From Candidatus Aenigmatarchaeota archaeon (lineage in GTDB: Archaea; Aenigmatarchaeota; Aenigmatarchaeia; QMZP01): 29,089 nucleotides of DNA. Under the pieces are notes generated by a model. The model searched no databases. It saw nothing but the letters and a program-made list of their open reading frames with translations, and was not told the DNA's origin. The translations under genes were made by a program, and so were the position numbers. Positions 8,973 to 9,196 of the stretch are shown piece after piece (within the stretch, counting starts at the first letter, position 1; every line of letters starts with the position of its first letter). The stretch covers positions 1-29,089 of the forward strand of contig JACQOD010000055.1 in NCBI GenBank assembly GCA_016202725.1, given 5' to 3'.

Positions 8973-9196
8973 GCCGGGGTGGCAGAACGGCTAAACGTTC
9001 GTGGGCCACTGCGCCAGACTTGAGCACGAGATATGATGATCCCCGCCTCGTGCGGGGAAATGATTTTTTGGCTTGACTCTGATACGGCGGAACATGAGGA
9101 GCAACCCTCGTGAAGATATCTGGTGTCCGCAAAGGCGCGCCGCAGGGATGCGGCCCACCGCGGAAGGACGTACAGGTTCGAATCCTGTCCCCGGCG
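8973..9196 (+). tRNA. tRNA-Ser(UGA) with three introns (8995-9009, 9025-9117, 9133-9165)
   Basis: Removing three BHB-bounded segments gives a canonical type II tRNA: GCCGGGG TG GCAGAACGGCTAATGC G CCAGA CTTGAGA TCTGG T GTCC GCAA GGAC GT ACAGG TTCGAAT CCTGT CCCCGGC G. Confidence 0.92.
9025..9117 (+). ncRNA. Candidate intron-encoded box C/D sRNA
   Basis: ATGATGA (9033-39), CTGA (9079-82), ATGAGGA (9094-9100), degenerate GTGA (9110-13); terminal stem CACGAG/CTCGTG. Confidence 0.55.

Follow-up and report, generated by a model that had tools for sequence, protein, structure and literature searches.

The window analysed here is a 29,089-nucleotide (nt) stretch of DNA, contig C27 of a Candidatus Aenigmatarchaeota genome from groundwater (985 kb, 63% G+C, about 75% complete). 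It carries a tRNA-Ser(UGA) gene that is interrupted by three introns, and the subject of this report is the second of these, a 93-nt intron at the canonical position 37/38, which is probably a box C/D-type methylation guide RNA. We read the gene by hand. The unspliced gene is called neither by ARAGORN at default settings nor by Rfam at gathering settings, ARAGORN without intron removal mis-calls it, and Rfam at E values up to 10 returned chance matches only, with no family that fits the intron, so that annotation pipelines for tRNAs and small RNAs (sRNAs) overlook the tRNA as well as the sRNA. Once the three introns are removed, ARAGORN reports tRNA-Ser(tga) with a full, normal class II cloverleaf, in agreement with an initial annotation of this DNA, which had placed an intron with limits 9025-9117 in a tRNA-Ser gene.

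The features referred to below are the following. The letters A and B denote the two kink elements of the intron (a kink-turn, K-turn, and a kink-loop, K-loop), and N1, N2 and so on are guide nucleotides counted upstream from the D-type box that follows them.

8973-9196, forward strand: tRNA-Ser(UGA) gene with three introns
About 8996-9009, 9025-9117 and about 9130-9163, forward strand: D-loop, 37/38 and variable-arm introns, the limits of the last being ambiguous by 1-2 nt
9019-9024, forward strand: anticodon loop nucleotides 32-37, CUUGAG, with the anticodon UGA at 9021-9023 and the 5' splice site after 9024
9025-9035, forward strand: guide 2, N11 to N1, CACGAGAUAUG; N5 is A9031 and faces U39 (T9119)
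9036-9039, forward strand: D-type box A, AUGA (family consensus NNGA), the non-bulged strand of K-turn A, its GA always directly 5' of the hairpin
9040-9058, forward strand: hairpin, the C-stem of K-turn A, 7 base pairs (bp) UCCCCGC/GCGGGGA with a 5-nt loop at 9047-9051
9059-9066, forward strand: C-type box A, with the bulge A9059 A9060 U9061, then G9062 A9063 and U9064-U9066; as a 7-nt box, AUGAUUU at 9060-9066
9067-9078, forward strand: guide 1, the 12-nt spacer UUUGGCUUGACU; N2-N11 pair with 16S 1405-1414 (contig C113:8801-8810)
9079-9082, forward strand: D' box CUGA of K-loop B
9083-9093, forward strand: loop of K-loop B with the invariant CGGCGG (9085-9090)
9094-9101, forward strand: C' box AUGAGGA plus G9101, forming stem II with 9077-9080
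9102-9117, forward strand: intron tail, with CUCGUG at 9107-9112, AAG at 9113-9115 and AU at 9116-9117 in the 3' bulge
9118-9125, forward strand: start of exon 2, tRNA nucleotides 38-45, the target strand of guide 2, with predicted 2'-O-methylation at U39 (T9119)

The intron is one of a conserved family. BLAST against 40 related genomes recovered the intron in its own right, and not the exons alone, from over 20 genera within the same family and order, with 68-80% identity. The core that is invariant among them (RRUGA, 5 nt, UGGCUUGACU, CNGA, 1-4 nt, CGGCGG, 0-4 nt, RUGANGAG) was found as a pattern on about 50 archaeal contigs, mostly of Candidatus Aenigmatarchaeota. The same pattern also matched about 30 bacterial contigs; none of these has the flanking boxes, which marks them as chance matches, and by this comparison the archaeal motif set exceeds chance. 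Both searches bear on a check proposed in the initial annotation, conservation of the boxes in orthologous introns, and both find it. The distance from the GA of the C-type box to the D' box is fixed at 15 nt, that is, a 12-nt spacer, in 52 archaeal loci. The CTTGAR anticodon loop is kept in all homologues, the host thus always being tRNA-Ser(UGA), and the intron tail varies in length and sequence except for its terminal A(A/G)AGAU or GAG.

Read from 5' to 3', the intron presents guide 2, D, hairpin, C, guide 1, D', loop, C' and tail, which is a cyclic rotation of the order C, D', C', D. Box D lies upstream of box C in the gene, as in permuted sRNAs, and the canonical linear order with a terminal stem is not found; the stem that joins C and D is a local hairpin. 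This permuted layout (NNGA followed at once by a hairpin, with exactly 3 nt between the hairpin and the C-box GA) recurs in about 43 of the approximately 50 introns.

The rotated order depends on K-turn A, in which GA 9038-9039 meets GA 9062-9063 (sheared pairs of G9062 and A9063 with A9039 and G9038) beside the 3-nt bulge and the 7-bp C-stem, a geometry seen in about 40 homologues. Statistics on this element come from 40 fully parsed introns, which were selected for a detectable hairpin. A stem of 3 bp or more that is anchored at the ends occurs in 40/40 of them versus 8% of shuffles, and one of 4 bp or more in 80% versus 4%. The hairpin sequence differs in nearly every genome, yet the stem is kept at the same place in every permuted-type homologue. 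Pairing at 4b-4n, which adjoins the U.U position, persists in 34/40 (U-A in 28, A-U in five and C-G in one), a value that 0/10000 permutations reached. The CCCCGC/GCGGGG hairpin (9041-9046/9052-9057) was already present in the initial annotation, where it figured as an extra; extended to 7 bp and kept at one place among the permuted-type homologues, it is instead the closing stem of the main K-turn. The C-type box on its 3' side, (A)AUGAUUU at 9059/9060-9066, had been overlooked.

The D' and C' boxes of K-loop B and their stem II, which the initial annotation had listed, proved real: both boxes are conserved (D' as CNGA, C' as RUGANGAG) in 48 distinct homologous introns. The sheared pair between the A of D' and the G of C' is kept in 48/48, and the C1-G6 pair is C-G in 45 and, covarying, U-A in one (L020) of the 48. 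Stem II reaches into guide 1, with N1-A7 in 46/48 and N2-G8 in 45/48. The loop motif CGGCGG is present in all BLAST-found homologues, 0-4 nt before C', and long hairpin insertions occur solely between D' and this motif. CGGCGG has no consistent partner within the pre-tRNA. A role as an N+5 guide for the box at C' was considered and rejected, since the gap between it and C' is variable (0-4 nt).

Guide 1 points to the decoding centre of the ribosome. A genome-wide search with it gave two near matches in the 16S ribosomal RNA (rRNA) gene on contig C113, of which one is conserved. At this site guide 1 forms ten contiguous Watson-Crick pairs with nucleotides 1405-1414 (E. coli numbers, by our alignment to the E. 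coli sequence), and N5, U9074, faces A1408 (C113:8804) as the fifth pair from D', the position expected of an N+5 target. The site reads GUCAAGCCA(A/U) and lies at the 5' base of helix 44. It does not vary among the 23 genomes in which that part of 16S is assembled, and it is the only rRNA site for guide 1 conserved across relatives. Among the genomes with both intron and 16S, 13/14 have ten contiguous Watson-Crick pairs at N2-N11, and the outermost pair, N11 with 1414, covaries, being U-A in nine genomes of family f1 and A-U in four genomes of families f2, f3, f5 and f6, with one exception. A target of at least 10 bp therefore exists, where the initial annotation had asked for about 9-10 bp or more, and its proposal that the D' guide acts in trans is likewise borne out by the 16S match, as guide 1 is not complementary to the host exons. 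Neither guide is complementary to exon 1 around position 34, and the sense of guide 1 is that of the anticodon loop. A1408 is a nucleotide of the decoding centre and is known as an aminoglycoside-resistance methylation site. C/D-guided methylation has been predicted at its equivalent in Sulfolobus acidocaldarius and Nanoarchaeum equitans (Dennis 2015, PMC4644070).

Two further matches of guide 1 were discarded. The other 16S match, GGUCAAGCCAG at C113:8848, close to the tip of helix 44, lacks conservation among the relatives, and an exact 10-mer match on contig C75 is of a kind expected about twice by chance in 1 Mb, both strands counted.

The sole constant complement found for CGGCGG is also in 16S, at 1399-1403 (CUGCC), directly 5' of the guide-1 target, with five pairs including one G.U. 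Accessory pairing of such a sort is known for yeast snoRNAs (small nucleolar RNAs). Here its geometry, with one unpaired target nucleotide opposite eight nucleotides of the sRNA, makes it doubtful.

We also made some observations on the 16S gene itself. All 23 Aenigmatarchaeota 16S genes read CACACUGCCCGUCA (C113:8795-8800 here; L120-L142 in relatives), which by our alignment puts a U at E. coli position 1400, elsewhere a near-universal C. The gene (C113:6629-9080) is interrupted and about 2.4 kb long. An insertion follows GUCGUAA near its 3' end and begins with a conserved GAYNGNGAGAYGGGCAA in many relatives; it is probably a family of rRNA introns.

Guide 2 is directed at the host tRNA. The first 10-11 intron nucleotides copy and extend the 5' strand of the anticodon stem, and 9025-9034 can pair with 9116-9125 (intron nucleotides -2 and -1 plus tRNA nucleotides 38-45) through nine pairs, with one G.G mismatch at N8. 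Counted upstream from NNGA, the fifth nucleotide is N5, and in 40/40 permuted-type introns it pairs with U39. Around it the duplex covaries: N7 with nucleotide 41 is A-U in 25 and G-C in 15, and N3 with intron -1 is C-G in 19, A-U in 18, U-A in two and G.U in one. Guide 2 changes in several combinations with the type of anticodon stem, which indicates that the match is not a single inherited change.

The same intron end takes part in a second fold. CACGAG (9025-9030) can form a helix with CUCGUG (9107-9112), continued by C32 U33 U34 with AAG (9113-9115), and this arrangement matches the inner helix of a bulge-helix-bulge splicing motif in slightly relaxed form. Since the guide-2 duplex buries the 3' splice site, it is excluded from the splicing motif and must form on the unspliced precursor; the two folds are mutually exclusive. 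The corresponding pre-tRNA conformers have predicted energies close to each other (-33.1 and -35.0 kcal/mol). When RNAfold is run on the precursor without constraints, a third structure results (-42.3 kcal/mol), in which exon 1 pairs with guide 1 via many G.U pairs; conservation was not found for it.

The mutual exclusion of these folds raises the most serious alternative to a methylation guide, namely that the K-turns and the mimicry of exon 2 are real and serve the control of pre-tRNA folding or splicing, assisted by L7Ae, or intron mobility, the 16S match being a chaperone contact or without function. A duplex that buries the 3' splice site must affect splicing, some relatives are without guide 1, and methylation itself is a prediction from sequence. 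A role in splicing or folding would, however, not need the specific hallmarks of methylation guides that are found here: U39 lies exactly at N+5 from the K-turn GA throughout the permuted-type introns, the spacer of guide 1 is exactly 12 nt, and the 10-bp 16S match sets at N+5 a nucleotide that is a recurrent predicted methylation site in archaea. We therefore consider this explanation unlikely.

A second alternative concerns the order of the boxes, and was the layout of the initial annotation, in which the intron is a C/D sRNA of canonical order: ATGATGA at 9033 serves as C box, the hairpin is an insertion in the D' spacer, D' and C' follow at 9079 and 9094, and GTGA at 9110 is a degenerate D box. 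All four sequences stand at the given coordinates (ATGATGA 9033-9039, CTGA 9079-9082, ATGAGGA 9094-9100 and GTGA 9110-9113), the first is a perfect RUGAUGA, and canonical order does occur in a minority of relatives (L013, L026, L089 and others). Conservation nevertheless speaks for another assignment. At the first motif only the last GA (9038-9039) is kept; the full RUGAUGA stands there in 3 of about 40 parsed homologues, and others read TAAGA, AAAGA, TTTGA or GGCGA. It also lies 39 nt, not 12 nt, from D'. The GTGA at 9110 is not conserved and is inside the CACGAG/CTCGTG helix, no terminal stem adjoins the boxes, and the conserved AAUGAUU, exactly 12 nt from D', would be left without explanation. 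What stands of that annotation is the guide-like character of an RNA in a tRNA-Ser intron together with D' and C'; the C and D boxes do not, and the canonical layout falls with them. For this intron we regard it as very improbable.

The least credible alternative, speculated on in the initial annotation, takes the anticodon loop of pre-tRNA-Leu(CAA) as the target of guide 1: ACUCAAG/CUU of that precursor (C88, L152) pairs at N1 and N3-N9 with one G.U, and Pyrococcus sRNAs do target C34 of tRNA-Leu(CAA) (PMC7994747), but the match has 7 contiguous pairs, a mismatch at N2 and A35 rather than C34 at N+5, and lies partly in a non-conserved intron, against ten Watson-Crick pairs at the 16S site, which is invariant and covaries with the guide. 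No tRNA-Leu(CAA) genes of relatives were recovered for a conservation comparison. The gene in question (C88:16888-17026) is called tRNA-Trp(cca) by ARAGORN; by hand we read it as tRNA-Leu(CAA), with an intron of roughly 30 nt at 37/38 and an insertion in the variable arm.

The relatives with canonical order are informative about the family as a whole. In these seven to nine introns (L013, L026, L034, L060, L081, L089, L099, L109 and L110) the C box is at the 5' splice site and a D-type GA near the 3' end is followed by a strand complementary to the 5' end of the intron. There is no guide 2, and the same core of guide 1, D', CGGCGG and C' is kept. The family thus exists in both a permuted and a canonical arrangement. 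We note that in L060 and L109 the hairpin comes directly after the anticodon loop, and G35 A36 of the anticodon occupy the place of the D-box GA, offset by one nucleotide. A half-size member is found in genome G019, a relative from the same family, again at 37/38 of tRNA-Ser(UGA). Of the full set of elements this 49-nt intron (L030:1555-1603) has guide 2, NNGA, the hairpin and a UGA box, with the register to U39 maintained; guide 1, D' and C' are absent, which suggests that the guide-2 half and the rRNA-guide half may be separable modules.

The genome encodes the protein partners of such an RNA, which the initial annotation had proposed to look for. We found a fibrillarin gene (E=1e-74), a Nop domain gene (Nop5, E=3e-25), which is cut by a contig end, and an L7Ae-family gene (E=1e-10) that could also be L30e. 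A strict scan of the about 75%-complete genome found no stand-alone canonical C/D sRNAs, and a relaxed scan found two versus 0.3 expected. One of these two relaxed matches is a candidate stand-alone dual-guide C/D sRNA downstream of 16S (C113:9591-9646, forward strand), with the boxes GUGAGGA, CGGA, AUGAUGA and CUGA and spacers of 12 and 13 nt. The tRNA-Trp(CCA) gene of the genome (contig C102:6688-6793; L153:189-294) has an intron of about 35 nt with a single GAUGA, which is too short for a dual-guide C/D RNA of the euryarchaeal type.

These results make it likely, in our view, that the 37/38 intron of tRNA-Ser(UGA) is a box C/D-type methylation guide RNA with cyclically rotated boxes, and that its targets are U39 of the host tRNA and A1408 of 16S rRNA. 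The following course of events would account for the arrangement. K-turn A would be built from AUGA (9036-9039) and AAUGAUU (9059-9065), closed by the local hairpin instead of the RNA termini, and K-loop B from CUGA and AUGAGGAG; on these, L7Ae, Nop5 and fibrillarin would assemble. The pre-tRNA would first adopt the guide-2 conformer, in which the ribonucleoprotein (RNP) on K-turn A, with K-loop B, would methylate U39, guide 2 acting on the unspliced pre-tRNA in cis or in trans. Refolding to the bulge-helix-bulge would then permit splicing. The excised intron would probably be circular, as is usual for archaeal tRNA introns, whose circularisation is established (PMC7994747, PMC3491384). A stable circle would restore the order C-D'-C'-D and could guide formation of Am1408 in 16S rRNA.

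A stricter version of this scheme can be offered only tentatively, and we think it rather less likely to hold than not to: that the full dual-guide RNP and the canonical order arise only after the splicing endonuclease and ligase have circularised the intron, so that one transcript would serve as tRNA-Ser, as a cis guide for Um39 and as a circular guide for Am1408, with CGGCGG pairing to 16S 1399-1403. If true, maturation of tRNA-Ser(UGA) would be coupled to ribosome modification, in genomes with apparently almost no stand-alone C/D sRNAs.

Several observations weigh against a rotated methylation guide. Outside their GA the boxes are degenerate, the C box being RUGAYN, not RUGAUGA, and the D box NNGA, not CUGA. 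The spacer from C' to D exists only across the intron ends; it is 28 nt in the circle here, partly folded into the CACGAG/CUCGUG hairpin, and 13-66 nt in homologues, not the canonical 12 nt, and in the linear precursor guide 2 is without an upstream C' box. Pairing with C' +7 and +8 is also open to N1 and N2 of guide 1, in competition with the target. G020 breaks the N11/1414 rule, and the guide of G025 is degenerate. The guide-1 core is missing from five related genomes (two with a completeness of 90% or more) despite the same 16S site, which indicates that guide 1 is dispensable or replaced there. The homologue genomes are kin, so that the counts given above overstate independent events. Finally, the sequencing runs listed with the sequence are of groundwater metagenome DNA, with no RNA run among them.

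Among the introns of archaeal tRNAs, methylation guides are textbook knowledge for tRNA-Trp alone. Reviews up to 2024 name no functional C/D guides in tRNA introns other than that of tRNA-Trp, within a limited literature check; the initial annotation, which knew of none for tRNA-Ser, agrees with this. The pre-tRNA-Trp intron of Euryarchaeota (Haloferax volcanii; Pyrococcus sR50; Clouet d'Orval 2001, Singh 2004) guides Cm34 and Um39 (PMC7994747, PMC11408192). Like it, the tRNA-Ser intron is at 37/38, has two box pairs and a guide that sets U39 of the host at N+5, and its guide duplex excludes the splicing fold, so that action would precede splicing. Unlike it, the tRNA-Ser intron has a tRNA-Ser(UGA) host in a DPANN lineage and the rotated order D-hairpin-C-D'-C', with no guide for position 34 and the other guide aimed at 16S rRNA. 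Rfam detected no sequence similarity between the two.

A closer parallel in lineage is N. equitans, also of the DPANN, which has a stable C/D-like RNA in the intron of elongator tRNA-Met (Randau 2012, PMC3491384) and two stand-alone RNAs, sRNA24 and sRNA26, with box D upstream of box C, detected as circles (PMC3491384). With the former the tRNA-Ser intron shares the position of a C/D-like sRNA in a non-Trp tRNA intron and a stable GC hairpin, and with the latter a box order that is correct only in circular form. The host tRNA and the targets differ, and in N. equitans the permuted sRNAs have genes of their own, distinct from the intron sRNA. In the tRNA-Ser intron permutation and intron location coincide, with the consequence that the splicing machinery itself would make the circle. 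A link between circular C/D RNAs and tRNA introns was raised for Nanoarchaeum (Randau 2012, PMC3491384), and the present intron offers a concrete, testable case of such a link, evolutionary as well as mechanistic.

Canonical archaeal dual-guide C/D sRNAs (PMC4644070) resemble the intron in the 12-nt C-D' spacer, the duplex of about 10 bp, the N+5 rule and the combination of K-turn and K-loop, and the S. acidocaldarius and N. equitans guides have the same predicted 16S site. The intron differs from them in having no independent gene, degenerate boxes, a second spacer that is not 12 nt and an 11-nt D'-C' loop with an invariant CGGCGG. What appears to be new is the joining of known traits in one element, together with an rRNA target, a new host tRNA and conservation across a phylum. 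The intron predicts ribose methylation of A1408 in organisms with genomes of about 1 Mb and apparently very few other guide RNAs, and would extend intron-borne guides to tRNA-Ser(UGA) in a DPANN phylum, to an rRNA target and to a rotated box order that splicing and circularisation could restore.

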